From a virus, in IMG/VR virus record IMGVR_UViG_3300032516_000003, positions 1,341-65,340 of that record: a stretch of 64,000 bases of DNA; one strand, 5' to 3'. The position numbers were made by a program, and so were the translations under genes. Positions within the stretch are counted from its first letter, which is position 1; each line of letters begins with the position of its first letter. Below, piece after piece: positions 1 through 35,250 of this stretch. The notes under the pieces were generated by a model. It saw only the letters and a program-made list of their open reading frames with translations. It was not told the origin of the DNA and made no database searches.

Positions 1-49
1 GTAGCGCTGGATGTGTTTCTTGGTGAGGCGCTCGATGGTCTCCTTGGTG
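1..49 (-). CDS. hypothetical protein, 5' end only (continues left of window)
   Basis: ATG at 47-49 (minus) after GAGAGATGAGG SD-like stretch; reads MKLTKETIERLTKKHIQRY with GC-rich codon 3rd positions; overlaps stop of the upstream HTH gene (ATGA-type coupling). Confidence 0.35.
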
Positions 50-68
50 AGCTTCATGGCCTCATCTC

Positions 69-437
69 TCAGTTGCGCAGCTTGATGCGAGCCCGATTGC
101 CCTCCCGCTCCCACCCCACCACCCCGGCGTCTCGTAGATGTCGTACAGCGATGATGGCTGAGGAGGCAGCGATGTCGAGCGCCCGTGCCAGCTCCCGAAT
201 GCTGCTGGCCGTGCGATCGGCCTTCTTCTTGAGGTGGCGCACGATGTGTTCTTCGTGGGTCCCACTGAGCTCGCGCGAGTGCTGAGCCTTGCCCCGTGGT
301 CGGCGGGCTGAGGGCTGGATCTCGGAGGCTGACGGTTCGACGGCCTTCAGCTCGGAGGTCGGCAATTCCTCGCTGGGCAGCTCCTCCTCCACGCCGGCGG
401 GGTAGTCCTTGAGCCACTTCTCGAAGTCGTAGGTCAT
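69..437 (-). CDS. winged-helix/HTH DNA-binding protein (repressor-like), 122 aa
   Basis: AGGAGG SD 6 nt before ATG 435-437; C-terminal SIRELARALDIAASSAIIAVRHLRDAGVV looks like a MarR/ArsR-type HTH; faces the AT-richer control region 440-830. Confidence 0.7.
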   Translation of the reverse strand: MTYDFEKWLKDYPAGVEEELPSEELPTSELKAVEPSASEIQPSARRPRGKAQHSRELSGTHEEHIVRHLKKKADRTASSIRELARALDIAASSAIIAVRHLRDAGVVGWEREGNRARIKLRN

Positions 438-454
438 GCGTTCCTCCTTGCTCT

Positions 455-464
455 CCTTATACCA
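455..464 (-). promoter_or_regulatory. TGGTATAAGG extended -10-like box
   Basis: minus strand, ~20 nt before HTH-gene ATG. Confidence 0.4.
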
Positions 465-686
465 TCCTCGTCGGCCGGACAAAGACGTCCCAGGAGCTTC
501 CCAGTTGAGGGTCAGTACCTCTCTCCTACAGGGTCGGGTCACTGGCGGCACGGTTGTGTGATCAATTGGATGCAATGGTTCTCTCTTGGTAGAGGTGTAG
601 GTGTGTATGCTAAGTCATTGGAACTACGCCGGGTTTTGCCTAGTGTCAAATTGCCCACATATCAAGGGGTTAAGTGCGTTCAGATC

Positions 687-701
687 ACTATTTGAAATAG
701 T
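687..701. promoter_or_regulatory. palindromic operator-like site ACTATTTgAAATAGT
   Basis: 7-bp inverted repeat with 1-nt centre in the AT-rich divergent control region next to the HTH gene. Confidence 0.4.
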
Positions 702-712
702 AGAGTAGCATT

Positions 713-742
713 CAAGGGATAGCCACCCCCCCAAGGGATAGA
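713..742. repeat. direct repeat CAAGGGATAG x2 (713-722, 733-742)
   Basis: exact 10-mer twice, 10 nt apart. Confidence 0.5.
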
Positions 743-774
743 CCATGACCATTCCCCAGGTTCACATGACAGGC

Positions 775-822
775 CTTAGCAGGCACACACTAGACCTTGA
801 ACCCCCTTAGCAGGCACACACT
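775..822. repeat. direct repeat CCTTAGCAGGCACACACT x2 (775-792, 805-822)
   Basis: exact 18-mer twice, 12-nt spacer, just upstream of promoter 863-891. Confidence 0.6.
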
Positions 823-862
823 GTTCCAACAATGTACTCCGATCCCCTAGGAACAAAGGTGC

Positions 863-891
863 TTGACAGATCGGTAGGAATCGATCATACT
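863..891 (+). promoter_or_regulatory. sigma70-type promoter TTGACA-17-CATACT
   Basis: TTGACA 863-868, 17-nt spacer, CATACT 886-891; shares ATCGATCATA with promoter at 12885. Confidence 0.55.
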
Positions 892-930
892 GAGGTGGTG
901 AACCAGCGACCAGGAGCACTGGAGGCTGTC

Positions 931-1116
931 ATGTGCTGCCCACTCTGTACCGGCGTGCTGCAAGTGTCGATCCCGGCCATCGGGGACCAGGAACCAGTCA
1001 TGAGCTGCCAGGGCTGCAAGGTGGTCCTGACCAGTGACTTCCTGGGCCTGTACATGGACCAGGCTCTTGACCGCGAGCTCATCCACGAGCTCCACCGGGA
1101 GCTGAAGGCCGCCTAG
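931..1116 (+). CDS. small Zn-ribbon protein (CPLC...CQGC), 61 aa
   Basis: GGAGG 5 nt upstream of ATG 931; GC3 becomes high only from this ATG; downstream of TTGACA-17-CATACT promoter. Confidence 0.5.
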   Translation: MCCPLCTGVLQVSIPAIGDQEPVMSCQGCKVVLTSDFLGLYMDQALDRELIHELHRELKAA

Positions 1117-1236
1117 TCTTCCCCCTCCCTGTCCCAGGGCCTGTGGCTCTTCATTGCCTCCATCCCAGTAAGCTATCCCCTGCGAGAGTGTGTCTATTAG
1201 CGACCCCCTGTCATGTGAACCTGGGGTGATATTGGT

Positions 1237-1321
1237 GGGGTAGGATATATACCTACCTTTGATCAACAAGCCCCAGCTACACCTGGTCACACGAACCAGG
1301 GGTAGGAATTATTGGGGTAGG
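1237..1321. promoter_or_regulatory. three GGGGTAGG boxes (1237, 1299, 1314) plus GGTAGG-ATATATA-CCTACC hairpin
   Basis: iteron-like repeats upstream of HNH gene; related GGGTATAGG at 1355. Confidence 0.4.
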
Positions 1322-1394
1322 TGTATGTGCGCTGATCAATTCACCCTCCTTCCAGGGTATAGGTCCTGTACTCTACCTTGAAGGAGGTTAGATC

Positions 1395-2357
1395 ATGCCA
1401 CCTAAACGAGTCCCTGCGGTCGGGGAGCGCTTTGGAGTACTAGAAGTACTGGGGGAAGTTCCGCCGGGACCGGATTGGAAGACCCGCGTGCGAGTTTCCT
1501 GCCATTGCGGTCGCCCGGGGTGCCATCAAGAACGAGTTGTCATGGCCGCATGTCTCTACCGTGGCATGACCACCTCATGTGGAGCCACGGGGAAGGATCT
1601 GGCTGGTCAGCCATTCGGTTTGCTGAAAGTGATCAGCTTTGCCGGAAGGGACGAAAGGAATAGCCTTCTGTGGCTAGTGGAGTGCCGCTGCGGCCGGCAC
1701 AACTGCCGTCATCAGTTCACCGTGAGAGCCAGCCAGCTACTTGGTGCCAAGATCAGATGTTGTGGCGGAAGACGACGTATAACTGATCTAGGACGGACTC
1801 TGAGCCGACACTACAGTGCCTACAAGGGCAGTGCCAAGAAGCGCCGCCTGGAATTCACGCTCTCTCAGGAGGCGTTCGAGCAACTCTGCATTCAGCCCTG
1901 CTACTATTGTGGACTCCTTGATCAGAAGCCCATCTTTACCCAGAAGAAGGGCGACCACACCAGCCGCACAACCGGGCTGAATGGAATTGATAGAGTAGAC
2001 AATACGAGGGGCTACGAGATCACCAATTGTGTACCCTGCTGTGCTACCTGCAACCGCATCAAGTTGGCACTTCCCGAGCAAGCATTCGTCGACCACTGCC
2101 AGAGGGTGGCGACTCACCAGATTGGACAGGGCATGTACACCCAGGAGCAGCTGCGGGAGCTCCAGGCGGCGATCACCCAGAGGCAGGAGGAGGAACATGA
2201 GTTCAACCATGACCCAGTGCATACTCAGGGGACCCCAGAACCAGGTGGACACCCGATGGATCGAATCCCGGCTGGCCCAGAAGGAGAAGCAGCTGGTGGT
2301 CAAGGCTTCCGGCCAGGTGTGGGTGGTAGTGGAGGTGGGAGCGACCTGGCCAACTAA
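1395..2357 (+). CDS. HNH homing-type endonuclease with duplicated N-terminal Cys/His DNA-binding repeats
   Basis: GAAGGAGG SD; C-terminal GLNGIDRVDNTRGYEITNCVPCCATCNRIK HNH motif; two GxxFGxLxVL...CxCG repeats; last ~50 codons have low GC3 and are overlapped by next gene. Confidence 0.8.
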   Translation: MPPKRVPAVGERFGVLEVLGEVPPGPDWKTRVRVSCHCGRPGCHQERVVMAACLYRGMTTSCGATGKDLAGQPFGLLKVISFAGRDERNSLLWLVECRCGRHNCRHQFTVRASQLLGAKIRCCGGRRRITDLGRTLSRHYSAYKGSAKKRRLEFTLSQEAFEQLCIQPCYYCGLLDQKPIFTQKKGDHTSRTTGLNGIDRVDNTRGYEITNCVPCCATCNRIKLALPEQAFVDHCQRVATHQIGQGMYTQEQLRELQAAITQRQEEEHEFNHDPVHTQGTPEPGGHPMDRIPAGPEGEAAGGQGFRPGVGGSGGGSDLAN

Positions 2358-2463
2358 ACGGGTGTTGGACTATGAATGGGACTATGTGACCATGCCGACG
2401 GTCTCGGATGCCCTCACCGGGAAGGATGGGCGGAGAAGGCTCCCGGTGCGGCCTAAAGGGTGA
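2197..2463 (+). CDS. hypothetical protein, 88 aa
   Basis: perfect AGGAGGAGGAAC-ATG start inside the tail of the HNH ORF; GC3-rich in this frame while HNH frame loses GC3 bias. Confidence 0.45.
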   Translation: MSSTMTQCILRGPQNQVDTRWIESRLAQKEKQLVVKASGQVWVVVEVGATWPTKRVLDYEWDYVTMPTVSDALTGKDGRRRLPVRPKG

Positions 2464-2478
2464 AATTGACCCTTTCCC

Positions 2479-2488
2479 CTGGCATAAG
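2479..2488 (+). promoter_or_regulatory. TGGCATAAGG extended -10-like box
   Basis: 46 nt upstream of ATG 2534. Confidence 0.4.
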
Positions 2489-2533
2489 GCTTGTAGAGGT
2501 CGAGATCAACTTTCGCACCTCTAGGAGGCTGAC

Positions 2534-2950
2534 ATGCACGCACATGCTCGTTTCTGCGCATTCGTGAAGGGTGTGGCCATCGTGATTGGCGGTGACGCAT
2601 GCCACACGGTGGAGAGTCTGAAGAAGGCTCTCCGTGGACGCCGGGCCGAGTTAATTGGTCAGGACGTACTCCTGCAGGTCTACGGGGGTCCCGAGGTGGA
2701 CTTCACCGAGATCGCCTCGGTGAAAGTTCTGGTCACCCCGACCAAGATCCAGGTCCTGGACAACAGCTTCGGTGTCAGCCCTATCAAGTGCGGCTGGGCG
2801 TGGTTAGAGTTCGCCCTGAAGGCGGCCGCGGACTTGGAGCTGAAGTCTCGACCCTGGCCGATGACAGAAGCCCCCGTGGCCCCGCGGCCGCAGACGGCTG
2901 CAGAGCAGGTGGCGGGGGACTGGGTCAAGTTCGACAACTACCACCGCTAG
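2534..2950 (+). CDS. hypothetical protein, 138 aa
   Basis: AGGAGG SD, ATG 2534; TGGCATAAGG box 46 nt upstream; two terminator hairpins follow. Confidence 0.65.
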   Translation: MHAHARFCAFVKGVAIVIGGDACHTVESLKKALRGRRAELIGQDVLLQVYGGPEVDFTEIASVKVLVTPTKIQVLDNSFGVSPIKCGWAWLEFALKAAADLELKSRPWPMTEAPVAPRPQTAAEQVAGDWVKFDNYHR

Positions 2951-2954
2951 GAGG

Positions 2955-2972
2955 AGGGCCTTCGGGCCTTTT
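2955..2972 (+). terminator. intrinsic terminator hairpin AGGGCC-TTCG-GGCCTT + TTTT
   Basis: GC stem, tetraloop, T-run after gene 2534-2950. Confidence 0.6.
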
Positions 2973-3003
2973 AGTCCCTACACGTCGCCCAGGGACTATT
3001 TTG
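2973..3003 (+). terminator. second hairpin AGTCCCT-N11-AGGGACT + ATTTT
   Basis: 7-bp stem followed by T-run; tandem with 2955-2972. Confidence 0.5.
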
Positions 3004-3126
3004 GGGTCCTGATATGTCCTCGATCAAATAGATACAATAGTCCATAGCTGTTTACCATGTACGGGCCCCACTGTTCAAGTCATCCACTCAACGAGGGGCG
3101 GAAGCCCTAGTCCCCACCAGATCGAG

Positions 3127-3136
3127 GTATAAGAAG
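3127..3136 (+). promoter_or_regulatory. GGTATAAGAA -10-like box
   Basis: after double terminator, 18 nt before ATG 3154. Confidence 0.4.
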
Positions 3137-4544: not shown

Positions 4545-4554
4545 TTCTTATACC
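4545..4554 (-). promoter_or_regulatory. GGGTATAAGA -10-like box
   Basis: minus strand, 22 nt upstream of ATG 4523. Confidence 0.4.
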
Positions 4555-4576
4555 CCAATAATGATCATTCGATCAG

Positions 4577-4586
4577 GTATAAGTCT
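4577..4586 (+). promoter_or_regulatory. AGGTATAAGT -10-like box
   Basis: 51 nt upstream of ATG 4637; divergent from 4545 box. Confidence 0.4.
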
Positions 4587-5481: not shown

Positions 5482-5711
5482 GGGTGATCCATCGAGGAGG
5501 ACACCCCGCCCAGGTCATCATCACCTCAGGTCCAGATCTGGAATCCGACGTCCGTTCGAACACGCCGGACTACCAGCCCGATCCCTGGGGTGACTACGAC
5601 CAGGAGAAGAACGGCTACACCAACTCGGAGACCCATGAGTTCTCCCCGGGTCCCGATCGCCCCGCTAAGAAACTCCCACCTCGCGGCCCCCGGGGCCGCT
5701 TCACCACCTGA
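5478..5711 (+). CDS. possible small gene (GTG start), 77 aa
   Basis: in-frame GTG overlapping stop of 5020 gene; GC3-rich; no clear SD; terminator hairpin follows at 5759-5776. Confidence 0.3.
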   Translation: MRVIHRGGHPAQVIITSGPDLESDVRSNTPDYQPDPWGDYDQEKNGYTNSETHEFSPGPDRPAKKLPPRGPRGRFTT

Positions 5712-5758
5712 AAGAGATGCTCACTCCTGGGGCATAAGGATCATGACAGGAGATGGTT

Positions 5759-5776
5759 ACCCCTTCGGGGGTTTCC
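5759..5776 (+). terminator. hairpin ACCCC-TTCG-GGGGT + TTCC
   Basis: after gene ending 5711; GGGCATAAGG box lies 25 nt upstream. Confidence 0.5.
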
Positions 5777-5790
5777 GTTAACCCGTAGAC

Positions 5791-6276
5791 CTACTTGAAG
5801 AGAAGACGGGCCGGCAACTGGGTCTGGTGCATCGGCGGCATGGCCTTGTGGACCGGGCGGGCCTTCAAGGCCTTCAGGGCCACCTCGGCGGGCTGGGAAG
5901 CTGGCGGAGGCTCGGGGCGACGCGGCTGCCCGACAGGCCGCGTTCTTGACCTCTCAGCCCGGCGAAGCTCGTCCTCGACCCGATGCCGCAGGCCGATCTC
6001 CAATACCGCGGCCCGTACCTGGTTGAGTGCCTCACCCTGCTCGTTGACCTGCTTGCGCAAGGCTTCGAGGTTGGCCGGTAGTTCCTTGTTGATCGTCTGG
6101 GCCACCTTCTGATACACCGCATCGACCGTCTTCTCGCTGGCCTTCTGCTGCCAGACCCCGAAGACACCTACGATCGCGGCCATGACGATCGGCACCAGGA
6201 GTTTCTCGATGGTCGTCTCCCAGATCTTGATCAGGAGGCCGTATAGGAAGGAGTGCTTCTTGGTCTCATCGCTCAT
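5791..6276 (-). CDS. membrane-anchored coiled-coil protein, 161 aa
   Basis: start MSDETKK at 6276; one TM helix (LLVPIVMAAIVGVFGVW) then heptad-rich helix and Pro-rich C-terminus; longer upstream extension has no SD. Confidence 0.55.
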   Translation of the reverse strand: MSDETKKHSFLYGLLIKIWETTIEKLLVPIVMAAIVGVFGVWQQKASEKTVDAVYQKVAQTINKELPANLEALRKQVNEQGEALNQVRAAVLEIGLRHRVEDELRRAERSRTRPVGQPRRPEPPPASQPAEVALKALKARPVHKAMPPMHQTQLPARLLFK

Positions 6277-9970: not shown

Positions 9971-9980
9971 CCGAGGTATA
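9971..9980 (+). promoter_or_regulatory. AGGTATAAGA -10-like box
   Basis: start of the 134-nt leader of gene 10104. Confidence 0.4.
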
Positions 9981-10103
9981 AGAGATGTAGGATCAAAGGA
10001 GGATAGCCATGAGAAGAGAGCACGCTCCTCGCGCTCTCGCTAGCCACGAAGCTCATCAACCACGTCGGCCAGGCGGTGGTCGATACGCAACTCAAGGTGA
10101 AAC

Positions 10104-12754: not shown

Positions 12755-12884
12755 GTTACCTCCCAACGTCAGTGATGCTCTTATCACACATTCCTGTGGT
12801 GTTTTCTAAGGCCGGGAAATCCCAACGATCCTGTGGCATAAGCCCGGTACGCACTGCTGATCGCTAAATTGTTCACTTTGGGGC

Positions 12885-12913
12885 TTGACAAAGCCGTGGT
12901 GATCGATCATAGT
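12885..12913 (+). promoter_or_regulatory. sigma70-type promoter TTGACA-17-CATAGT
   Basis: upstream of H1-like gene; spacer/-10 GATCGATCATAGT nearly identical to promoter at 863. Confidence 0.55.
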
Positions 12914-12949: not shown

Positions 12950-13456
12950 ATGTACAACACGGACCAGTGGAAGATCATGAAGCAGCTCGCCGGCTCACTC
13001 CCGAAGCGTGAGTCCCTCAAGATCGGGGACATCAAGGACAAGTGCTTCAAGTCTGCCCCCAACGACCGCGTGGTGCGGAACGCCATCCGCAAGCCGGTCG
13101 CCGAGGGCCACGTCGAGATCGCCGATCGTGGCGACTATCGGCTGACGGCGAAGGGCGCCGCCTTCTGCCAGAAGATGGAGAAGGAGGGCTTCAAGCCGGC
13201 GTCAGTGCGTCAGATGGCGAAGCCGTCTCAATCGATCAAGAAGAGTGCCAAGAAGGCCGCCCCGAAGAAGGTGGCCAAGAAGAGTGCCAAGAAGGCCGCC
13301 CCGAAGAAGGTGGCCAAGACCAACGGAGCCAAGGTCGAGTCCAAGCCGACCGAGAAGTCCCAGGCCCCCGAACCCAAGAAGAGCTCGGTCAAGATCCCCC
13401 GCCCCAAGAAGGACGAGTCGGCAGCTGCCGTTCCTCCGTCCACTCTCAGCTTCTAG
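12950..13456 (+). CDS. H1/Hc1-like DNA-binding protein: wHTH-like N-domain plus Lys/Ala/Pro repeat tail
   Basis: CAGGAGG SD, ATG 12950; tail KKSAKKAAPKKVAKKSAKKAAPKKVAK...KKSSVKIPRPKK; downstream of TTGACA-17-CATAGT promoter; terminator hairpin 13483-13513. Confidence 0.75.
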   Translation: MYNTDQWKIMKQLAGSLPKRESLKIGDIKDKCFKSAPNDRVVRNAIRKPVAEGHVEIADRGDYRLTAKGAAFCQKMEKEGFKPASVRQMAKPSQSIKKSAKKAAPKKVAKKSAKKAAPKKVAKTNGAKVESKPTEKSQAPEPKKSSVKIPRPKKDESAAAVPPSTLSF

Positions 13457-15428: not shown

Positions 15429-15459
15429 GGGGTGGGCCGGACGACACCGGCCCACCCCA
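15429..15459. terminator. hairpin GGGGTGGGCCGG-N7-CCGGCCCACCCC between convergent genes
   Basis: 12-bp perfect GC stem; weak T-tracts. Confidence 0.5.
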
Positions 15460-15465
15460 CCGAGA

Positions 15466-15870
15466 TCAGACCTTCTCAATCTCGTAGTTCGTGCGGTTCC
15501 CGTCTTTCGTCTCCTTGACCAGGACGGGGATCCCAGTTGGGAACTCCTCCCACATCTTCGCTTCGATCGCGGCGCGGTGTGCCTCGTCGAAGACGTCATC
15601 TCCCCTGTACTTGTGGCTGTGGTCGTTGTCGCGGAAAGGCACCCACAGGTGTGGGCGGCGCCCTTCCACGACTTCGACAATGACGGTGGGTGTCAGGAAA
15701 CCGTGCCGATGGAGCGTACCGTCATGACGTTCCTCGTCGATGGGCGGCAGGTAGCGAGTGTCGTGTCCAGAGACTACGCAGTTGTAGATCTTCACCGGGA
15801 TGGTCGCAGTCGTTTCCTTCTCGGACTTGTCCTTCTTGGTCGTTTCCTTCTTGGTGGTCTTCGTGGTCAT
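15466..15870 (-). CDS. hypothetical protein with Thr/Lys-rich N-terminus, 134 aa
   Basis: GGAGGACAGC-ATG; convergent to dNMP kinase with perfect 12-bp-stem hairpin 15429-15459 between; CGGTATAAGG box upstream. Confidence 0.65.
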   Translation of the reverse strand: MTTKTTKKETTKKDKSEKETTATIPVKIYNCVVSGHDTRYLPPIDEERHDGTLHRHGFLTPTVIVEVVEGRRPHLWVPFRDNDHSHKYRGDDVFDEAHRAAIEAKMWEEFPTGIPVLVKETKDGNRTNYEIEKV

Positions 15871-15912
15871 GCTGTCCTCCGGCTGAAGGCTGATGGTTCA
15901 CTTCGTGTTTAC

Positions 15913-15922
15913 CTTATACCGT
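15913..15922 (-). promoter_or_regulatory. CGGTATAAGG -10-like box
   Basis: minus strand, 43 nt upstream of ATG 15870. Confidence 0.4.
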
Positions 15923-15933
15923 GGGAGGATCAA

Positions 15934-16539
15934 ATGTTGATTGGGATCGATGAGGCCGGCATGGGCACCTTGGCCGGCCCCATGACTGCCGCAGTGGTGG
16001 TCCTGGCCGACGATGCACAGATCAAAGGTGTCCGTGACTCCAAGACCATGAACAACGAGCAGCGGGAGGAAGTCGCGGCCAGGATCATGACCGCAGCGTT
16101 GTTTTACCAGGTCGGTTCTCGGGAAGCTGAGGACATCGACAAGCGGGGGCTCTCCAAGTGCTGGCTGGAGCTGGTCCGCGAGCTGGCCATCGCAGCCAAG
16201 GCAGCCCTGTCCGAGCAGCTGATGGACAAGCCCACGAACGAGAAGATCATCCTAGACGGCAACCGGCTGATCGGGTTACCCTATGTGATACCCGTGGTCA
16301 AGGCCGATGCCACGCATCTCGCCGTCTCCGCCGCGTCGATCCTCGCCAAGTACAAGCAAGTGTGCGCAATGATCGACGCCCATAGGCTCTATCCAGCCTA
16401 CGGCTTCTTAGAACATCACGGCTACTGTACGATCAACCACAAGACCAAACTGAGGGAGCGGGGACCATGTCCAATCCATCGCAGGAGCTTCCGACCGGTG
16501 AGGGACCTTACTCGGTCTTCTGGTTCCGGACGCGGCTAG
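15934..16539 (+). CDS. rnhB: ribonuclease HII
   Basis: GTGGGAGGATCAA-ATG; IGIDEAGMGTLAGPMTAAVVVL, DSKTM, ASILAKY and C-terminal HRRSFRPV are RNase HII hallmarks. Confidence 0.9.
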   Translation: MLIGIDEAGMGTLAGPMTAAVVVLADDAQIKGVRDSKTMNNEQREEVAARIMTAALFYQVGSREAEDIDKRGLSKCWLELVRELAIAAKAALSEQLMDKPTNEKIILDGNRLIGLPYVIPVVKADATHLAVSAASILAKYKQVCAMIDAHRLYPAYGFLEHHGYCTINHKTKLRERGPCPIHRRSFRPVRDLTRSSGSGRG

Positions 16540-16718
16540 GGACGTTGTACACCATGCCGGACATGTTGCCACAGCATGTCGACGAGGCCCACCGGCAGCT
16601 GGACCTGCCGGTGACCAACATCACGTTGCGCAACATCAGTGATGTGGCTATGGTAGTACCGCGGCGGATCATCAAATCCGCCGGCGCCAATGATCGGTGC
16701 TTCTGGGAAGCCCCATGA
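16467..16718 (+). CDS. hypothetical protein, 83 aa
   Basis: GGGAGCGGGGACC-ATG; overlaps 3' end of rnhB. Confidence 0.5.
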   Translation: MSNPSQELPTGEGPYSVFWFRTRLGTLYTMPDMLPQHVDEAHRQLDLPVTNITLRNISDVAMVVPRRIIKSAGANDRCFWEAP

Positions 16719-17215
16719 TCTGCATCAATTGCGGCTGTGTGATCGGGCAGCAGTTCCTCTTCCAGGGCGTGGTGGTCTGTGGCGACTGCTACAAGATCGC
16801 CAGCCACTACCTGCAGCGGACCAAGACCGAGCTGCAGATGCTGGTCCAGACCTACATGGAGATGCTGCGCGTGGCGCTCATCAAGGGTCAGCTCCGGCCG
16901 CCGCGACTACCGGCCGGGGAGCTACCGCGGCGACAGTTCACCAAGGCATTCCAACAACTGTTGGAGGAGATCACCGATGCGGACCGAGCCAAGAAAACCA
17001 CGAATGGCGACGGCACAGTGCAGGGCCTGCGGAGCGAAGCGGAGGATACCCGACGTGAACTTCGAGCTGGGCACCATGCTGAAGCCGTACTCAGGGGGCG
17101 GGAACTACGGCCACTGCCTGAAGTGCAAGCGGGCCGGGACACTGATGATCATCGAGACTCCGCCACAGCCGGAGCCGACGCTGCCGACGGGATGGACCAA
17201 ATACCCAGGAGGTGA
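16715..17215 (+). CDS. Zn-ribbon protein (CINCGC...CGDC); C-terminus uncertain
   Basis: ATGA coupling; coding-like GC3 only to ~16990, remainder overlapped by next gene. Confidence 0.45.
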   Translation: MICINCGCVIGQQFLFQGVVVCGDCYKIASHYLQRTKTELQMLVQTYMEMLRVALIKGQLRPPRLPAGELPRRQFTKAFQQLLEEITDADRAKKTTNGDGTVQGLRSEAEDTRRELRAGHHAEAVLRGRELRPLPEVQAGRDTDDHRDSATAGADAADGMDQIPRR

Positions 17216-17222
17216 GACGTGA
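16977..17222 (+). CDS. Zn-ribbon protein (CRACGAK...CLKCKRAG), 81 aa
   Basis: GGAGGAG SD before ATG 16977. Confidence 0.5.
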   Translation: MRTEPRKPRMATAQCRACGAKRRIPDVNFELGTMLKPYSGGGNYGHCLKCKRAGTLMIIETPPQPEPTLPTGWTKYPGGET

Positions 17223-17674
17223 GTGCTTTCGAGATCTGGCTGGGCGAGCGGAAGATTGCGACTCCTACACAATACAGTTGGAACCAACCCTTCGTCCCAG
17301 GGTCGGCGCCGAGCGAGTGGCACGTGTGGCCGGGGATGAAGAGCATCGGCCTGTTCTACTTCCGGCGCCTGACCCTAGAGCCGCCGGTACTCTTTGAGCA
17401 TCTGTCCGGGGTGGGTCTGGCGGCCTTCCTGGACCATTGTGACTTCAAAGTCATCGGCGACGGACGCACCACCATCCACGAGGACCTACGCTACATTCAC
17501 GGGCGCAGTGAGGCCATGAAGGGCAATCCCCAGGTCAGCGCCGTGGTGCTGGCCAAGATAGAACCGGCGGAGGACTTCAATGAGCTCAAGTTCCGGACCC
17601 AGATCCCCAACATCTACCGCGAACTGCTGGCCCAGATGACTGGGGCTCCGACGGTCCCCGAACAGAAGACTTGA
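17219..17674 (+). CDS. hypothetical protein (GTG start), 151 aa
   Basis: GGAGGTGAGAC-GTG. Confidence 0.6.
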   Translation: MSAFEIWLGERKIATPTQYSWNQPFVPGSAPSEWHVWPGMKSIGLFYFRRLTLEPPVLFEHLSGVGLAAFLDHCDFKVIGDGRTTIHEDLRYIHGRSEAMKGNPQVSAVVLAKIEPAEDFNELKFRTQIPNIYRELLAQMTGAPTVPEQKT

Positions 17675-17699
17675 CAGGGACAGACACTGTCTGTATGAC
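17671..17699 (+). promoter_or_regulatory. promoter-like TTGACA-17-TATGAC with embedded palindrome ACAGACAcTGTCTGT (17680-17694)
   Basis: perfect 7-1-7 palindrome fills the spacer and overlaps -10: operator-in-promoter architecture. Confidence 0.45.
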
Positions 17700-17711
17700 T
17701 GATGGAGAGGC

Positions 17712-17996
17712 ATGAACTTGGCAGATTCGAAAGAGACGATCGCAGAGGCTGTCCTCCCCCCGAGGAAGCCTTTTCTTAGCCAAGATCAGCTTGATGAGCT
17801 CTGGAACGAGCGAGGCCTGAAGTACCGGGTCGACGAGTTCCATGTGGTGCTGCTGGAGCGAGGTCTGGGCGTTCACGTCGACCGGCCGATCTTCCGCAGC
17901 ACTTTCTACAGCATCCTGAAGCTGTTCCTCGTCGAAGGAGAGGCGAAGCGGGACCCCCGCTACATGCCCATCCCCCGCTTCCCTCGTGTCCAATGA
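17712..17996 (+). CDS. hypothetical protein, 94 aa
   Basis: GGAGAGGC-ATG; preceded by TTGACA-17-TATGAC promoter containing a 7-1-7 palindrome. Confidence 0.6.
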   Translation: MNLADSKETIAEAVLPPRKPFLSQDQLDELWNERGLKYRVDEFHVVLLERGLGVHVDRPIFRSTFYSILKLFLVEGEAKRDPRYMPIPRFPRVQ

Positions 17997-19108
17997 GCAA
18001 GGACGACAAGAACACGGTCAGCTTCAACAAGACGCCTGAGGAGGTCTTGCGGGCGCGGAAGAGCCAACAGGAACTGACCTCGGAGCAGAAGGCCTACCAG
18101 GAGCGCATGGCCAGCCTCAAGCAAGCTCGCCAGCCTCTGGGTGGTGCTCCGCCCGTACAGATCCCACCACTGGATGCCGAGCCCATGGAGCACTTCAAGG
18201 GCACCATGCAGGACCAGGCAGCAGCCCTGCGGGACCCCACCAATCCCCTCAGCCCCCTCTACGAGCCGCAGCTGGCCATGATGGGCCATCCCCTGGCACC
18301 TCTACCGCCCGAAGCTGCCCAGCAGCCAGGATTCCGCCCTGGTGTCGGCTCGATGTACGCCCACAACCAACCCGCCATCCCCCGAGTGCCGGCCAAGACC
18401 ATGGTGCCACCCAAGCCGGGTGAGCCCTACCGGCCGAGCCTGAGTCGCGAAACCGAAGAGAGCTTGCGGGCTCTGGCCGAGTTCCAGAGCAAGGCGCAGC
18501 ATACCCAGGAGGCTTCTGTGGACGAGACCAAGAAAGACGAGAAGAAGATCGACGAAGAGGCCTCCAAGCTGGAGAAGGCGGCCAAGGAAGGCGCTCCGGA
18601 GAAGGACTTCCTCAACGAGCTGAAGGGCCTGCTCGACAACCCCCAACAGTGGAACGCGCTCAACAACCCGGCCCGCCGCAAGGAGATCGAGGCTCGCTGC
18701 CGGCCGATGGACATCACGGACATCATCCTGCATGGTGAGGTCCGGCAAGAGGTGCCAATCCGCACCGGTCCCAAGCCTCTGGTCATCATCTATCGCTCAG
18801 TTTCAGTCGACGAAGACCTGGCGGTCAAGCGCATGATGTTCGGTGAGACCGGTGGCGATCGCTATCTGATCGACAAGTTCTCCCTCATGCAGCTGACTCT
18901 GGGCATCGTCTCGATCAACGGGGAGTCGCTGCCCACGCACCTCACCGAGGATCGGAAGTTCGACGAGAAGAAGTTCGACAACAAGTACCAGAAGCTACTG
19001 CGCTTCCCGATCCAGTTCATCGCGGATTTGGGGATACAGTATCAGTGGTTTGACGAGAGAGTCCGTGATCTCTTCGTCGGAACGACGGAGGCCGTAAAAA
19101 ATTCCTAG
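17993..19108 (+). CDS. hypothetical protein with Pro/Gln-rich middle region, 371 aa
   Basis: ATGA coupling; GC3-rich throughout. Confidence 0.7.
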   Translation: MSKDDKNTVSFNKTPEEVLRARKSQQELTSEQKAYQERMASLKQARQPLGGAPPVQIPPLDAEPMEHFKGTMQDQAAALRDPTNPLSPLYEPQLAMMGHPLAPLPPEAAQQPGFRPGVGSMYAHNQPAIPRVPAKTMVPPKPGEPYRPSLSRETEESLRALAEFQSKAQHTQEASVDETKKDEKKIDEEASKLEKAAKEGAPEKDFLNELKGLLDNPQQWNALNNPARRKEIEARCRPMDITDIILHGEVRQEVPIRTGPKPLVIIYRSVSVDEDLAVKRMMFGETGGDRYLIDKFSLMQLTLGIVSINGESLPTHLTEDRKFDEKKFDNKYQKLLRFPIQFIADLGIQYQWFDERVRDLFVGTTEAVKNS

Positions 19109-28980: not shown

Positions 28981-29136
28981 GAATGCACAGCGCCGTCGGC
29001 ACATTCTGTACCGTCCACCCGCTGCGGCCCCGGTGGCGGGGATTTCAACCCTGCACCTCCTCCGACGAGGATCCCTTCGTGCGGCGGCCGTCGTGGCGAT
29101 CTTGTTGATCCACACCGGGAGCTGAGATCTTATACC

Positions 29137-31302: not shown

Positions 31303-31593
31303 CTACCATTCTGGATCAACGATTACGTCGTGCCAATCGATGATGTCCCAGTTCAGCCAGCGGGTGGTGAGGAGTTTGCCCTTCAAGGCCTCGTCCTTCT
31401 TCCACTCCGCGTGCTTCTCTTCGGTGGTCTGTCCACCACAGAGAGTGATCTCTCCCATGATGGTGAGGACTCCATCGCTGCGGAAGGAGTCTTCCTTGTC
31501 GATGCCGTAGTCGGAGAAGACGTTGAGGATCTTGTCCTCCTCACCTTCTTCGACCGGCTTGATCTCAATCTCCACTCGGTAGAAGCGGCTCAT
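31303..31593 (-). CDS. hypothetical acidic protein, 96 aa
   Basis: minus-strand ORF, GC3-rich, weak SD. Confidence 0.5.
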   Translation of the reverse strand: MSRFYRVEIEIKPVEEGEEDKILNVFSDYGIDKEDSFRSDGVLTIMGEITLCGGQTTEEKHAEWKKDEALKGKLLTTRWLNWDIIDWHDVIVDPEW

Positions 31594-31865
31594 GGCTGGC
31601 TCCGTGTGTCGCCTGTGAGGATCCACTTGCAGTACCAGCAGAGAGTGCGAGGGTCTTGTAGACCCAGCCGGTATCCGCAATTCTCACAGCGTGTTGGCTC
31701 GATGAGGTGCTCAGGCAGGGGGAGCTCGCTGAAGATCCTCGGCGTTACGCGCCGATGGACTCCGCAATCTGTGGTGACCTCGCCGATGATCTTCTCTCCC
31801 GGCTTGCGCCAGGGAGGGTTGTCGTCGGGGCTCACGGCTGCTCCAGCAGCAGTTGGCTCAGACAT
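31590..31865 (-). CDS. Zn-ribbon protein (CENCG...CWYCKW), 91 aa
   Basis: ATG 31865; ATGA-type overlap with 31303 gene. Confidence 0.5.
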   Translation of the reverse strand: MSEPTAAGAAVSPDDNPPWRKPGEKIIGEVTTDCGVHRRVTPRIFSELPLPEHLIEPTRCENCGYRLGLQDPRTLCWYCKWILTGDTRSQP

Positions 31866-32362
31866 GCGAGCTGCCACTCGCGCTCGATGTGGTAGTCGGC
31901 GGAGGCGGCGGCGGCGGCGGCGGAGGCGGCGGCGGAGTAGGCGGAGTAGGCGGAGGCGGCGGCGGAGGAGGCGGCGAAGGCGGAGGAGGCGGCGGCGGAG
32001 GAGGCGGCGGAGGAGGCGGCGGCGGAGGAGGCGGCGAAGGCGGAGGCGGAGGCGATGTCCAACTCATTCGGCGACACTGACCCAGGCCACTCCAGTGCCC
32101 GCCGAGTGAGTCGTAGGCATGCCTGCACCCGCCGGTCACGGTTGAGATGCCGCACCCGCTCCGCGACGACCAGCGCGTACCACCGCTGCGCGTCGAGGGG
32201 CAGCACAGTGACCAGCCACCACACGTCGATCTCGTCGAGTGCCGCGAGCAGTGACAGGTTCTCTACCGTCGGCTCGAAGCCCTTGGGAAACCGCCGACAG
32301 ACCGTGAGCACCTGTGGCTGGCAAGCATGGTGCGCGCACAACAACTCCTTCGTGATCTTCAT
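31832..32362 (-). CDS. hypothetical protein with N-terminal Cys/His-containing domain and Ala/Ser low-complexity tract encoded by (GGC/GGA)n
   Basis: CAGGAGGCTCTG-ATG at 32362; in-frame with 53-triplet repeat 31897-32055. Confidence 0.5.
   Translation of the reverse strand: MKITKELLCAHHACQPQVLTVCRRFPKGFEPTVENLSLLAALDEIDVWWLVTVLPLDAQRWYALVVAERVRHLNRDRRVQACLRLTRRALEWPGSVSPNELDIASASAFAASSAAASSAASSAAASSAFAASSAAASAYSAYSAAASAAAAAASADYHIEREWQLACLSQLLLEQP
31897..32055. repeat. (GGC/GGA)n trinucleotide tract, ~53 triplets
   Basis: GGCGGAGGCGGCGGC... in-frame on minus strand as Ala/Ser run. Confidence 0.8.
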
Positions 32363-32589
32363 CAGAGCCTCCTGGCGAGCCAGCGCTCCACCGCGCGCTG
32401 CGCCGGTGCTAGATGTACGTAGAGGCGCTCCCACGTCTCGGTGCCGTGCCAGGCATACGCTCGCCGGCCCTGGACGTGGGCGGCGACCATGCCGCCGTGG
32501 CCATCGCCGCCGACCATGAGGTCGGGGCCGTCCCAGTGCCATTCCAGCGTGAGCGCAGGGGAAGAGGGTCCTGTCTTGGCTTTTTTCAT
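32362..32589 (-). CDS. hypothetical protein, 75 aa
   Basis: GAAGGGAGGCGCGCG-ATG; stop overlaps next start. Confidence 0.5.
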   Translation of the reverse strand: MKKAKTGPSSPALTLEWHWDGPDLMVGGDGHGGMVAAHVQGRRAYAWHGTETWERLYVHLAPAQRAVERWLARRL

Positions 32590-35240: not shown

Positions 35241-35250
35241 GTCTTATACC
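35241..35250 (-). promoter_or_regulatory. TGGTATAAGA extended -10-like box
   Basis: minus strand, 24 nt upstream of first gene of inverted operon. Confidence 0.45.

Follow-up and report, generated by a model that had tools for sequence, protein, structure and literature searches.

Repeats in a phage control region as probable recent duplications in the variable spacer of a conserved early-promoter module

The repeats that stand out between two divergent genes of a ~194-kb phage are probably recent local duplications in the hypervariable spacer of a conserved early-promoter module and, judging from the sequence, likely scars of recombination. Since the spacer that carries them is found only in this phage, a young origin is preferred to a conserved genetic switch or a conserved replication origin. 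A first-pass annotation of the interval 440-930 of the window (the whole stretch of 64,000 nucleotides analysed here, to which all coordinates refer) had described a divergent control region with a palindrome, two sets of exact direct repeats, a box serving the leftward gene and a sigma70-like promoter, and had compared the layout to a repressor/antirepressor switch or an origin-like iteron region. All of these elements are present, with coordinates 1-2 nt off. The divergent region, the box and the sigma70-like promoter hold up well, whereas the reading of the repeats as a switch or as an iteron origin does not.

The window is part of the genome (193.7 kb) of a phage with a contractile tail; in the part of this genome that was seen, the gene content is of the lytic type, with nucleotide metabolism. 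The leftward and rightward gene blocks diverge at 440-930, in agreement with the earlier description, and so does the local drop in GC content, which reaches 0.48 in 500-800 vs ~0.60 in the genome. The frequency of GATC in the region is not above the genome-wide level, itself already high. The same locus is found in five related lineages (L003, L005, L007, L009, and L011), in the order noncoding block, variable spacer, promoter, Zn-ribbon gene, and second noncoding block (Table 1); another contig, L018, belongs to the phage of L005. On either outer side of this module, the genes vary among the lineages, and an HNH endonuclease gene is present in the window only, which together mark the locus as a recombination hotspot. 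The HNH ORF (1395-2357; PHROG 1035/3118 HNH/endonuclease VII matches, E=1e-16) extends into the next gene, 2197-2463, in another frame, and in L005 and L007 a homolog of 2197-2463 stands directly after the right block. Many short early genes were missed by a codon-usage gene caller, and other gene calls were used.

Several searches beyond these lineages were negative or nearly so. Positions 1-3000 gave no DNA similarity match among 50,697 phage records, the HTH and Zn-ribbon proteins used as queries found no relatives in viral contigs, and a 19-mer from the conserved core matched neither viral nor metagenome contigs. The single genome-contig match of this 19-mer, in a Methylophilaceae MAG, was judged to be chance because ~9 chance matches were estimated and no similarity extends beyond the seed. 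The promoter pattern gave 19 matches in metagenome contigs, with L018 as the sole relative, and a single match in viral contigs, also unrelated; this pattern also matches ordinary bacterial promoters in metagenomes.

Table 1. Features of the control region and its surroundings, in window coordinates
Feature	Position	Strand	Remarks
122-aa protein gene	69-437	-	SD AAGGAGG at 443-449; first gene of the leftward block
GGTATAAG box, putative phage-type promoter element without -35	456-463	-	predicted to serve the HTH gene
Left conserved noncoding block	466-686		alignments A2, A4, A7; single copy
Left-block invariant words CGGCCGGA, CTTCCCAGT, GATC	472, 497, 560		single copy per genome
Degenerate inverted 18-mer copy with its 3' extension	593-614	-	not in the first-pass annotation
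Left-block invariant words TG.ATGCTAAGT, GGAACTAC, CAGATCA	604-615, 620-627, 680-686		single copy per genome
IHF-like site TATCAAGGGGTTA	660-672	+	match to IHF core consensus; predicted
Lineage-specific spacer segment	687-804		alignments A2, A7; holds the repeats first annotated
Palindrome ACTATTTgAAATAGT	687-701		absent from relatives
CAAGGGATAG, two copies	713-722, 732-741	+	period 19; absent from relatives
20-mer left arm	754-773	+	new inverted copy of a right-block element; in window-only segment
CCTTAGCAGGCACACACT, two copies	774-791, 805-822	+	period 31, 13-nt gap
Promoter-upstream words ACACACTG, ATGTACTCCGA	816-823, 832-842	+	alignment A7
Predicted host sigma70-type promoter GCTTGACAGATC-N13-CATACTGA	861-893	+	-35 863-868, -10 886-891
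61-aa CxxC...CxxC Zn-ribbon gene	931-1116	+	SD GGAGG 921-925; all six lineages
Right conserved noncoding block	1117-1345		alignments A3, A8; G-run-rich
20-mer right arm	1207-1226	+	ancestral; short GC-rich hairpin in most lineages
Lineage-specific insertion	1346-2357	+	own GGTATAGG box 1355-1362, SD, HNH ORF

The spacer segment measures ~118 nt and is absent from all five relatives; these have ~30 nt at its position, except L009 with an expansion of its own, and a mismatch-tolerant search at the homologous place found none of the spacer motifs. Lack of conservation in relatives had been named in advance as an observation that would count against a functional reading of the repeats. The palindrome, both 10-mers and one copy of the 18-mer are indeed lacking there, as is the left arm of the 20-mer, since they all lie within this segment. 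The copy of CCTTAGCAGGCACACACT at 774-791 is new and that at 805-822 is ancestral; in L003 a single copy, CCACAGCAGGCACACACT, occupies the place of the second. Chance also deserves attention. Dinucleotide shuffling of 438-930, repeated 1000 times, produced direct repeats of 10 nt or more in 105 cases and palindromes with arms of 7 nt or longer in 111; at ~11% each, neither the 10-mer pair nor the palindrome is remarkable alone. The 18-mer pair appeared in none of the 1000 (0.02 matches expected in 64 kb at up to three mismatches) and is the only one among the repeats first described that exceeds chance. The palindrome thus stands where it had been placed, without exceeding chance by itself; the 10-mer pair is present too, but ends at 741, not 742, and is equally not significant alone, while the 18-mer pair starts at 774 rather than 775, with a spacing of 13 rather than 12 nt.

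The region contains further repetition that had been overlooked. An inverted, degenerate relative of the 18-mer with its 3' extension lies at 593-614 (20/23 in the local alignment of 775-797 with its reverse complement, p=0.01 by shuffling), and this segment is also the invariant core (AGGTGTAGGTGTGTATGCTAAG) of the left block. The next intergenic region, 1117-1394, shares sequence vocabulary with 440-930. CAAGGGATAG is the reverse complement, at 9/10 positions, of the conserved right-block word CTATCCCCTG (1173-1182), and a perfect 20-bp inverted repeat, CCCCAGGTTCACATGACAGG, for which 0 occurrences are expected, flanks the Zn-ribbon gene. Its right arm has counterparts at the homologous position in L003 (CCTGTCgTGTGAACtTGGGG), L005 (CCcGTgCcGTGAACCTaGGG), and L009 (CCgGTCcCGTGtACCgGGGG), and the left arm is without the part of the ancestral element that forms the hairpin. 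A proposal that the whole spacer is a diverged inverted copy of the right block was discarded, as the similarity of the sequences flanking the 20-mers is not significant (p=0.10 and 0.44). Neither the exact 20-mer nor the exact 18-mer was found in viral contigs.

A perfect inverted repeat that brackets a promoter and a gene could suggest an invertible segment or a miniature transposable element, 754-1226, that would invert or relocate the cassette of promoter and Zn-ribbon gene. This is highly improbable. The right arm is found in conserved context where the left arm is absent, so that the pair does not represent the two ends of one inserted element. Moreover, there is no target-site duplication (flanks ACCATT and TGATAT), no recombinase gene among the neighbours scanned, and no further copy of the 20-mer in the 74 kb examined of the ~194-kb genome; in two independent assemblies the segment has one orientation, with 0 mismatches.

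Recent duplication is consistent with the behaviour of the spacer in other lineages. L009 has, in the same spacer, an unrelated tandem 17-mer in two copies, independently gained, which indicates that the spacer gains repeats recurrently. The distance from block to promoter differs by ~100 nt among lineages, and the spacer is therefore not length-constrained. Near-identical contigs, when compared, did not reveal any copy-number polymorphism. The repeats (687-822) overlap neither promoter: 41-176 nt separate them from the -35 hexamer downstream, and the leftward promoter is >220 nt away.

The two promoters belong to the conserved part of the module. On the minus strand, TGGTATAAGG occupies 464-455, 18 nt upstream of the start of the HTH gene at 437. 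Its core GGTATAAG occurs eight times in the window, against 0.35 copies expected per 64 kb, and 12 times in 74 kb; across four phage fragments, 31 of the 33 copies are followed by an SD and a start 17-63 nt downstream, and no conserved -35 accompanies them. The box assigned to the HTH gene in the first reading is a genuine recurrent element of promoter type lying close to genes. No described consensus matching GGTATAAG was found in the literature, where the matches are unrelated primers only. On the other strand, TTGACA-17-CATACT at 863-891 agrees with the consensus at 10/12 positions, 40 nt upstream of the ATG at 931, and qualifies as a predicted bacterial sigma70-type promoter, as had been proposed. 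The words CTTGACAGATC and CAyACTGA are invariant in the six lineages, with spacing fixed at 13 nt, and the same invariance is observed for ATGTA within the promoter-upstream words. A twin promoter of identical architecture is located at 12883-12913. The Zn-ribbon protein downstream (amino acid identity to L003/L005/L007 of 88/54/48%) has no Pfam or PHROG family and no HTH match.

The noncoding blocks are conserved too. The left block occurs in the four lineages whose contigs are long enough, and part of it in L009; its identity to L003/L005/L007 is 83/63/59%, similar to that of the HD gene (74/69/71%). A small conserved ORF does not explain it: indel lengths are not divisible by 3, and in L005, L007, and L009 the frame opened by the conserved ATG is closed by a stop after 4-10 codons. 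A reading of the conserved words as ECF-type (GGAAC) or MotA-box-type elements was also dropped, their putative -10 partners being unconserved. In the right block, the invariant words are CAGTAAGCTAT, AGTG, CGA, GGGGTAGG, and ATGTG..ATGAT, and GGGGTAGG is repeated three times (1237, 1299, and 1314). Its identity over 1150-1250 to L003/L005/L007 is 80/79/63%, an older internal duplication is visible in the window and L003, and the consensus fold is weak (-8.8 kcal/mol), with no covariation.

Conservation of noncoding sequence might also point to a small noncoding RNA or a structured leader in 466-830, with the 18-mers pairing with the conserved core, of which 601-614 is 86% complementary to both 18-mers. 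Such an RNA seems very unlikely. Rfam has no credible match at gathering or permissive thresholds, RNAalifold gives -14.4 and -9.0 kcal/mol over ~240 columns with invariant best blocks, and the MFE z-scores run from -0.7 to +1.7 on both strands of four lineages. Besides, the block is not bounded by a conserved promoter or terminator and the 18-mer partner is missing or altered in other lineages. With no RNA-structure signal in the left block, the structured-RNA hypothesis was rejected on the consensus folds and z-scores, a test of limited power with 4-6 sequences.

A DNA-level role for the whole module, 466-1345, has more to recommend it, although it still appears unlikely. The module would be a unique cis-acting site of an uncharacterised ~190-kb phage clade, either a transcription-activated replication origin or a packaging or terminus site. 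If it were an origin, the AT-richer stretch and the IHF-like site could melt and bend, the strong promoter could supply transcriptional activation, and the lineage-specific direct repeats, which arose independently in two lineages, could be iteron-like protein-binding sites in rapid turnover. The single-copy blocks show roughly the conservation of genes, only 186 of the ~870 nt of the module are coding, and the GC dip coincides with the divergence of gene orientation. For the IHF core consensus, WATCAANNNNTTR, the site TATCAAGGGGTTA is the sole match in 64 kb (0.35 expected), and L003 and L005 each have one at the homologous position, that of L005 differing at the N position (GGAG). In addition, the contig of L011 begins with a complete sequencing adapter attached to sequence that aligns at window ~649, which could mark a fixed DNA end. 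Other observations speak against such a site. Of five lineages, three conserve the IHF-like site and two, L007 and L009, lack it; a PCR-duplicate artefact could account for the adapter junction, and in four lineages the contigs continue through the region without a break. The repeats have only two copies each and are lacking in four of the six lineages. Instead of the three or more phased direct repeats of ~17-22 bp expected of an iteron origin, there are two direct copies 31 bp apart and, at a distance of 160 bp, a single degenerate copy in inverted orientation. Among the neighbours, no match to a Rep or helicase-loader family was found (122-aa winged-HTH-like, Zn-ribbon, and HNH endonuclease), nor is any initiator, terminase or partition gene adjacent. 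The GC skew is flat and the switch in AT skew merely tracks the coding strand. There is no conserved DnaA box; a candidate, TTGCCCACA (651-659), was rejected, having two mismatches to the consensus and being unconserved in L005 or L007. With two copies, no adjacent initiator gene and no independent strand-skew signal, the iteron-region proposal of the first-pass annotation is not supported.

The gene at 69-437, followed leftward by one that starts at 57, raises the question of a regulator acting on the repeats. Its product has an acidic N-terminal half of low confidence and, in the AF2 model, a C-terminal part (residues 61-120 with pLDDT of at least 90) formed by helices and a beta-hairpin. 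Pfam PF25212 matches below threshold (E=9.5e-4, 19.4 bits vs a cut-off of 27.6), the best Foldseek matches are ArsR/SmtB winged-helix proteins, all with E>2, PDB sequences gave no match and, among 5.8 billion proteins, no homolog was found except the protein itself. The modelled C-terminal half is probably a winged helix-turn-helix. The C-terminal 61 amino acids are 56% identical to a 299-aa protein of L003, encoded 2 kb away, and no homolog was found on the contigs of L005 and L007; the gene adjoins the control region in this lineage only.

It is conceivable, but doubtful, that this protein binds the 18-mer sites (774-791, 805-822, and the inverted 593-614), the 20-mers or both, and that it shuts off early transcription in an Aca-like or Cro-like circuit newly evolved in this phage, perhaps through a DNA loop around the promoter and the Zn-ribbon gene. 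Several observations suit such an operator array, and most of them can also be turned against the interpretation of the repeats as scars. The 18-mer and 20-mer pairs are perfect, far beyond chance, which fits selection as well as a recent origin; the three related 18-mer sites are what is expected for a multimeric DNA-binding protein, and the 31-bp period of two of them is near three helical turns; the 20-mers bracket promoter and gene at a distance of 453 bp; and the winged-HTH gene abuts the region in exactly this lineage. However, neither promoter is overlapped, the nearest 18-mer ending 41 nt upstream of the -35; L003 has the HTH-domain homolog yet none of the extra copies; the invariant core is kept in lineages on whose contigs no such homolog was found; the HTH assignment is below threshold; and the left 20-mer lacks the hairpin-forming part. 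A repressor/antirepressor switch, as first suggested, agrees poorly with repeats that overlap neither promoter and are unconserved in relatives. No second divergent DNA-binding regulator was detected, the right gene being a Zn ribbon with no HTH match, and a scan of ~25 proteins and the 20-kb L001 gene table showed neither integrase nor excisionase. The operators and the gene pair are likewise unconserved, with the repeats absent from five relatives and the HTH homolog present in L003 only.

Local duplication within a conserved module remains the preferred explanation. A -35-less GGTATAAG phage-type promoter would drive the leftward winged-HTH gene, and the host sigma70-type promoter would drive the 61-aa Zn-ribbon gene, presumably an immediate-early unit read by unmodified host RNA polymerase. 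The unstructured 220-bp block 466-686, with its IHF-like site, may act as a cis element at the DNA level. Between this block and the promoter, the hypervariable spacer would have gained a second 18-mer copy, a doubled 10-mer, and an inverted copy of a 20-nt element of the right block. The likely mechanism is replication slippage, template switching, or break repair; the last would fit a locus that acquired an HNH homing-endonuclease gene in the same lineage. Two observations sit less easily with this explanation: the 20-mer was copied without flanking similarity, odd for simple slippage, and direct repeats at the same spot in two of six lineages could be due to a function that requires repeats regardless of their sequence. 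At most, the repeats could be newly recruited extra binding sites, outside the conserved control logic.

It is important to note that exact repeats that catch the eye in the control region of a phage can be duplications of recent date, specific to one lineage; in this case, comparison with a few distant relatives shifted attention from the repeats to the conserved elements. For the annotation of this ~190-kb uncultured clade, the useful elements are a rare TTGACA/CATACT host-type promoter together with an abundant -35-less GGTATAAG box, a conserved early module around the 61-aa Zn-ribbon gene, and two conserved noncoding blocks as candidates for a cis-acting site. Current understanding is not overturned, and the general interest is modest unless the blocks prove to be an origin or a packaging site.

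Among known systems, the lambdoid CI/Cro switch is similar in that the gene of a DNA-binding protein faces an opposite small gene across repeated motifs. Unlike its tandem pseudo-palindromic operators, the repeats here are off the promoters and are direct or distantly inverted; a second HTH gene is lacking, neither an integrase nor a lysogeny module was seen, and both repeats and gene adjacency are unconserved in relatives. Iteron-type origins (lambda ori, pSC101, and R6K gamma) combine iterons with an AT-rich region and IHF or DnaA sites. The 18-nt direct repeat, the AT-richer stretch, and the IHF-consensus match within ~150 bp recall this design, but two copies 31 bp apart contrast with 3-7 phased iterons, relatives lack the repeats, and none of the adjacent genes encodes an initiator. 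In T4-type hyperplastic regions, small early genes lie between PeSL (promoter-early stem-loop) repeats, through which cassettes are shuffled. Here too, similar short sequences stand on either side of a small early gene that has its own promoter, and neighbouring cassettes, each with its own promoter box, vary among relatives; the flanking copies, however, are inverted and occur once rather than genome-wide, with the left copy in one lineage. The phage also differs from those of the phiKZ/PhiPA3 type, to which its tail sheath is only ~34% identical. In large lytic phages, host sigma70-type early promoters coexist with -35-less phage-specific promoters, and the late promoters of T4 consist of a lone TATAAATA box. 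This phage departs from them in a GGTATAAG box matching no described consensus found and in the ~400 bp of noncoding DNA between its divergent promoters, which is unusually long. It resembles large lytic phages such as T4 in combining a canonical conserved -35/-10 promoter with a repeated -10-like box without -35, and in its small early genes interspersed with free-standing HNH endonuclease genes.

Judged by its gene content, the window is phage DNA. It carries a tail sheath gene (PHROG 15433, E=1e-93), whose product shares ~34% identity with the sheaths of Pseudomonas jumbo phages of the phiKZ/PhiPA3/Noxifer type, and it also encodes a deoxynucleoside kinase, a dNMP kinase, an RNase HII, an HD-domain protein, an amidase and a ParB_N-domain protein. 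An identical copy of the 122-aa protein (69-437) is encoded on a metagenomic contig of 193,704 bp, from which the same-phage locus L001 was taken; L001 overlaps the window with 0 mismatches and extends it 9.9 kb leftward. Since genes run leftward on the left of 440-930 and rightward on its right, gene orientation truly diverges at this interval. The turn of the cumulative AT skew at this place only follows the coding strand, and GC skew is flat. Farther left, L001 encodes an 860-aa protein (15434-18016) with Pfam major vault protein domains (MVP_shoulder; weak Vault matches), which are unusual in phage, near a dCMP deaminase, NT5C and a second pair of small Zn-ribbon (zf_Tbcl) and HNH_3 genes. 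Inside overlapping ORFs of both strands (31832-32542 minus, 31330-32109 plus), the window holds at 31867-32072 a long array of imperfect GGC/GGA-rich repeats, whose period is 9-15 nt.

The interval 440-930 is probably the divergent promoter region of this large phage, and the repeats found in it are most likely recent, lineage-specific duplications. On one side would stand a conserved immediate-early unit, in which a host-type promoter and the Zn-ribbon gene are flanked by blocks conserved at the DNA level, and opposite to it a leftward gene block driven by a phage-type box. The repeats would have arisen in the sole stretch of the region where neither length nor sequence is constrained.

Features of the divergent region and of the conserved module around it (window positions unless a related locus is named)
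Feature	Position	Strand	Sequence and remarks
Phage-type box	464-455	minus	TGGTATAAGG; just upstream of SD and ATG (437) of the 122-aa gene
Left noncoding block	466-686		Invariant CGGCCGGA, CTTCCCAGT, TG.ATGCTAAGT, GGAACTAC, CAGATCA
Spacer	Between left block and promoter-upstream words		Variable length
Palindrome	687-701		ACTATTTgAAATAGT
10-mer, two copies	713-722, 732-741		CAAGGGATAG
20-bp inverted repeat	754-773, complement at 1207-1226		CCCCAGGTTCACATGACAGG; perfect, 0 expected by chance
18-mer, two copies	774-791, 805-822		CCTTAGCAGGCACACACT; 13-nt spacer, period 31
Promoter-upstream words	Between spacer and promoter		ACACACTG, ATGTACTCCGA
Rightward promoter	863-891	plus	TTGACA-17-CATACT, 10/12 matches; CTTGACAGATC-N13-CAyACTGA invariant in 6/6 lineages
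Zn-ribbon gene	Between promoter and right block	plus	
Right noncoding block	1117-1345		Invariant CAGTAAGCTAT, GGGGTAGG, ATGTG..ATGAT
Right block homologs	L003 6500-6728; L005 3337-3500; L007 6497-6622; L009 599-756; L011 426-582		
GGTATAAG copies	456-463, 3126-3133, 4547-4554, 4576-4583, 9975-9982, 15913-15920, 29129-29136, 35243-35250		

The two promoters belong to different classes. That the leftward box serves the 122-aa gene, as proposed in the first-pass annotation, is supported by the recurrence of GGTATAAG upstream of SD and start codons. This word occurs 8 times in the window (0.35 expected), 12 times in 74 kb, and 33 times over the window and three related phage fragments; 31 of the 33 copies have, on their own strand, SD and a start codon at 17-63 nt downstream, and a conserved -35 is lacking. 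It is also present in L001 and in the related lineages L003, L005 and L007, often directly after GATC, and the variants GGTATAGG, GGCATAAG and GTGATAAG are located upstream of other genes. These data identify it as a clade-wide promoter-type box lacking a -35, of a kind proper to this clade. By contrast, the rightward promoter has canonical -35/-10 elements and is, by sequence definition, of the sigma70 type, as had been proposed; it would be read early by the host polymerase. The sole other promoter of this architecture in the 74 kb, GCTTGACA...ATCGATCATAgT at 12883-12913, precedes a winged-helix-like gene (12950-13456) for a 168-aa protein with a lysine-rich tail. The divergent region there spans only ~195 bp, against a promoter-to-promoter distance of ~400 bp in 440-930, and holds no repeat array. 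The lysine-rich tail includes an exact 39-nt tandem duplication (13237-13314, KKSAKKAAPKKVA repeat). GATC occurs at ~8.5/kb in the window and L001 (74 kb), L003, L005 and L007, ~2.4x our own base-composition expectation, and is present inside both host-type promoters and beside many GGTATAAG boxes.

A homolog search with the 122-aa protein returned only itself. For the HD-domain protein, whose gene lies 2.5 kb rightward, homologs of 54-70% identity were found on contigs that proved syntenic, and a profile of the Zn-ribbon protein added two more lineages on short contigs. The locus is thus available in six lineages (the window, L003/L004, L005/L018, L007, L009/L010 and L011/L012), whose alignments show a fixed order of elements. 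Identity to L003/L005/L007 is 83/63/59% for the left block, 80/79/63% for the right block and 74/69/71% for the HD gene, so the noncoding blocks are roughly as conserved as the adjacent genes. Beyond this ~870-bp module, the adjacent genes vary by lineage on both sides. L005 holds an intact 164-aa plus-strand gene (2305-2799) between the leftward promoter and the conserved block, of which L003 retains a decayed remnant (5690-5950) and which is wholly lost from the window.

In the right block, invariant CTATCCC and GGGGTAG might base-pair so as to enclose a short GC-rich hairpin, the ancestral 20-mer; no covariation was found in that block. That the region encodes a noncoding RNA is very improbable: the Rfam search of the conserved blocks gave no match, consensus folds are weak (-14.4, -9.0 and -8.8 kcal/mol) with invariant best-conserved columns, and folding z-scores range from -0.7 to +1.7 (both strands, four lineages). 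No ORF is conserved in the blocks. Their words are single-copy per genome, so that the blocks are not a recurring promoter. The one positive lead is a candidate IHF site: TATCAAGGGGTTA (660-672) is the sole match in the 64-kb window to the IHF core consensus, WATCAANNNNTTR. L003 and L005 have exactly one match each at the homologous position, that of L005 differing at one unspecified base, and L007 and L009 have none. L009 and L010, from two samples, begin at an identical base inside the left block. At L011 1-58, the contig opens with the entire Illumina universal adapter, and phage sequence follows it immediately; this sequence aligns to window ~649, close by the IHF-like site on its left. 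The junction reflects either a DNA end that is physically fixed or an artefact of a short insert or PCR duplicates.

All elements named in the first-pass annotation are found in the sequence, with small corrections of coordinates, and the GC dip is real (0.48 around 500-800, ~0.60 elsewhere). They differ in meaningfulness: among 1000 dinucleotide-preserving shuffles of 438-930, none gave an 18-nt direct repeat, while direct repeats of at least 10 nt turned up in 105 and palindromes having 7-nt arms in 111. Taken together with its 3' extension, the 18-mer also matches the invariant core 593-614 as a degenerate copy in inverted orientation (20/23, p=0.01). Short words of 440-930 recur almost only in the next intergenic region, 1117-1394 (ACACACT, GGGATAG, CTGTCATGTG, TGATCAATT and GTAGGTGT). 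The strongest feature had been overlooked, namely the 20-bp inverted repeat, whose arms bracket the rightward promoter and the Zn-ribbon gene. Such an arrangement might bound an invertible or mobile element; this is the least credible of the readings, given that the right arm is ancestral, that two assemblies show a single orientation, that target duplication is lacking, and that neither further copies (in 74 kb and viral contigs) nor a recombinase (among the neighbours scanned) were found.

Comparison with relatives points to the origin of the repeats. The palindrome, the two copies of the 10-mer, the left arm of the 20-mer and the first copy of the 18-mer all fall within 687-804, a segment that none of the relatives has, ~30 nt standing there in L003, L005 and L007; the conservation on which the earlier reading had been made to depend is therefore lacking, and a mismatch-tolerant search found none of the repeat motifs at the homologous place. 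L003 has a single 18-mer-like copy, CCACAGCAGGCACACACT, at the place of the window's second copy, which identifies the first copy as a duplication. Likewise, the right 20-mer arm, within the conserved right block, is recognisable in L003 (2 differences), L005 and L009 (5 differences each), and is thus ancestral, the left arm being a recent inverted copy. Because similarity between the flanks of the two arms is not significant (p=0.10, 0.44), only the 20-mer itself was copied. L009 carries in its homologous spacer a perfect tandem repeat (CACCATCCAGCTGATCA x2, 239-272) unrelated in sequence to the window's repeats, and the right block of the window and L003 has an older internal duplication of a hairpin-plus-GGGGTAGG unit, giving three GGGGTAGG copies. 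An HNH endonuclease gene, provided with a GGTATAGG box of its own, is inserted directly after the right block in the window's lineage, whereas L005 and L007 have the next conserved gene at that place. Repeat gains, block duplication and HNH insertion together make the locus a hotspot for duplication and for the exchange of cassettes; the copies may stem from slippage, from template switching or from the repair of breaks close to a homing-endonuclease gene. The inserted gene (1346-2357; PHROG 1035/3118) is free-standing and lineage-specific; its ORF lacks a stop of its own, extends 160 nt into the next gene (2197-2463) in a different frame and was missed by the source's gene caller. Other lineages have different cassettes at this junction, each with its own promoter box.

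The repeats might instead have evolved recently as operators for the neighbouring putative winged-HTH protein, a reading that we regard as unlikely. The HTH label derives from a sub-threshold Pfam match; in an AlphaFold single-sequence model, residues 61-120 (pLDDT >=90) form helices followed by a beta-hairpin, and Foldseek ranked ArsR/SmtB-type winged-helix repressors first, not significantly. A homologous domain occurs only in L003, as part of a 299-aa protein encoded 2 kb away from the module, beyond an additional gene for 573 aa; none was found on the L005 and L007 contigs.

The earlier interpretation stands in part: the region controls divergent genes, and its promoter box and its promoter are both real, but the repressor/antirepressor switch or origin proposed for it is unsupported. 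What retains interest is the pair of conserved noncoding blocks, together with the GGTATAAG class of promoters in this uncultured clade of phages. Regarding known systems, 440-930 falls outside the CI/Cro switch family, as its repeats, the would-be operators, do not overlap the promoters, a second regulator is missing and nothing in the arrangement is conserved. Nor does it belong with iteron origins, since there are just two copies, an initiator gene is missing and conservation is absent; that the module is a replication origin or packaging site with fast-evolving iteron-like repeats is about as unlikely as the operator reading. As a divergent promoter region, 440-930 would resemble in its working the early/late promoter junctions found in large lytic phages.
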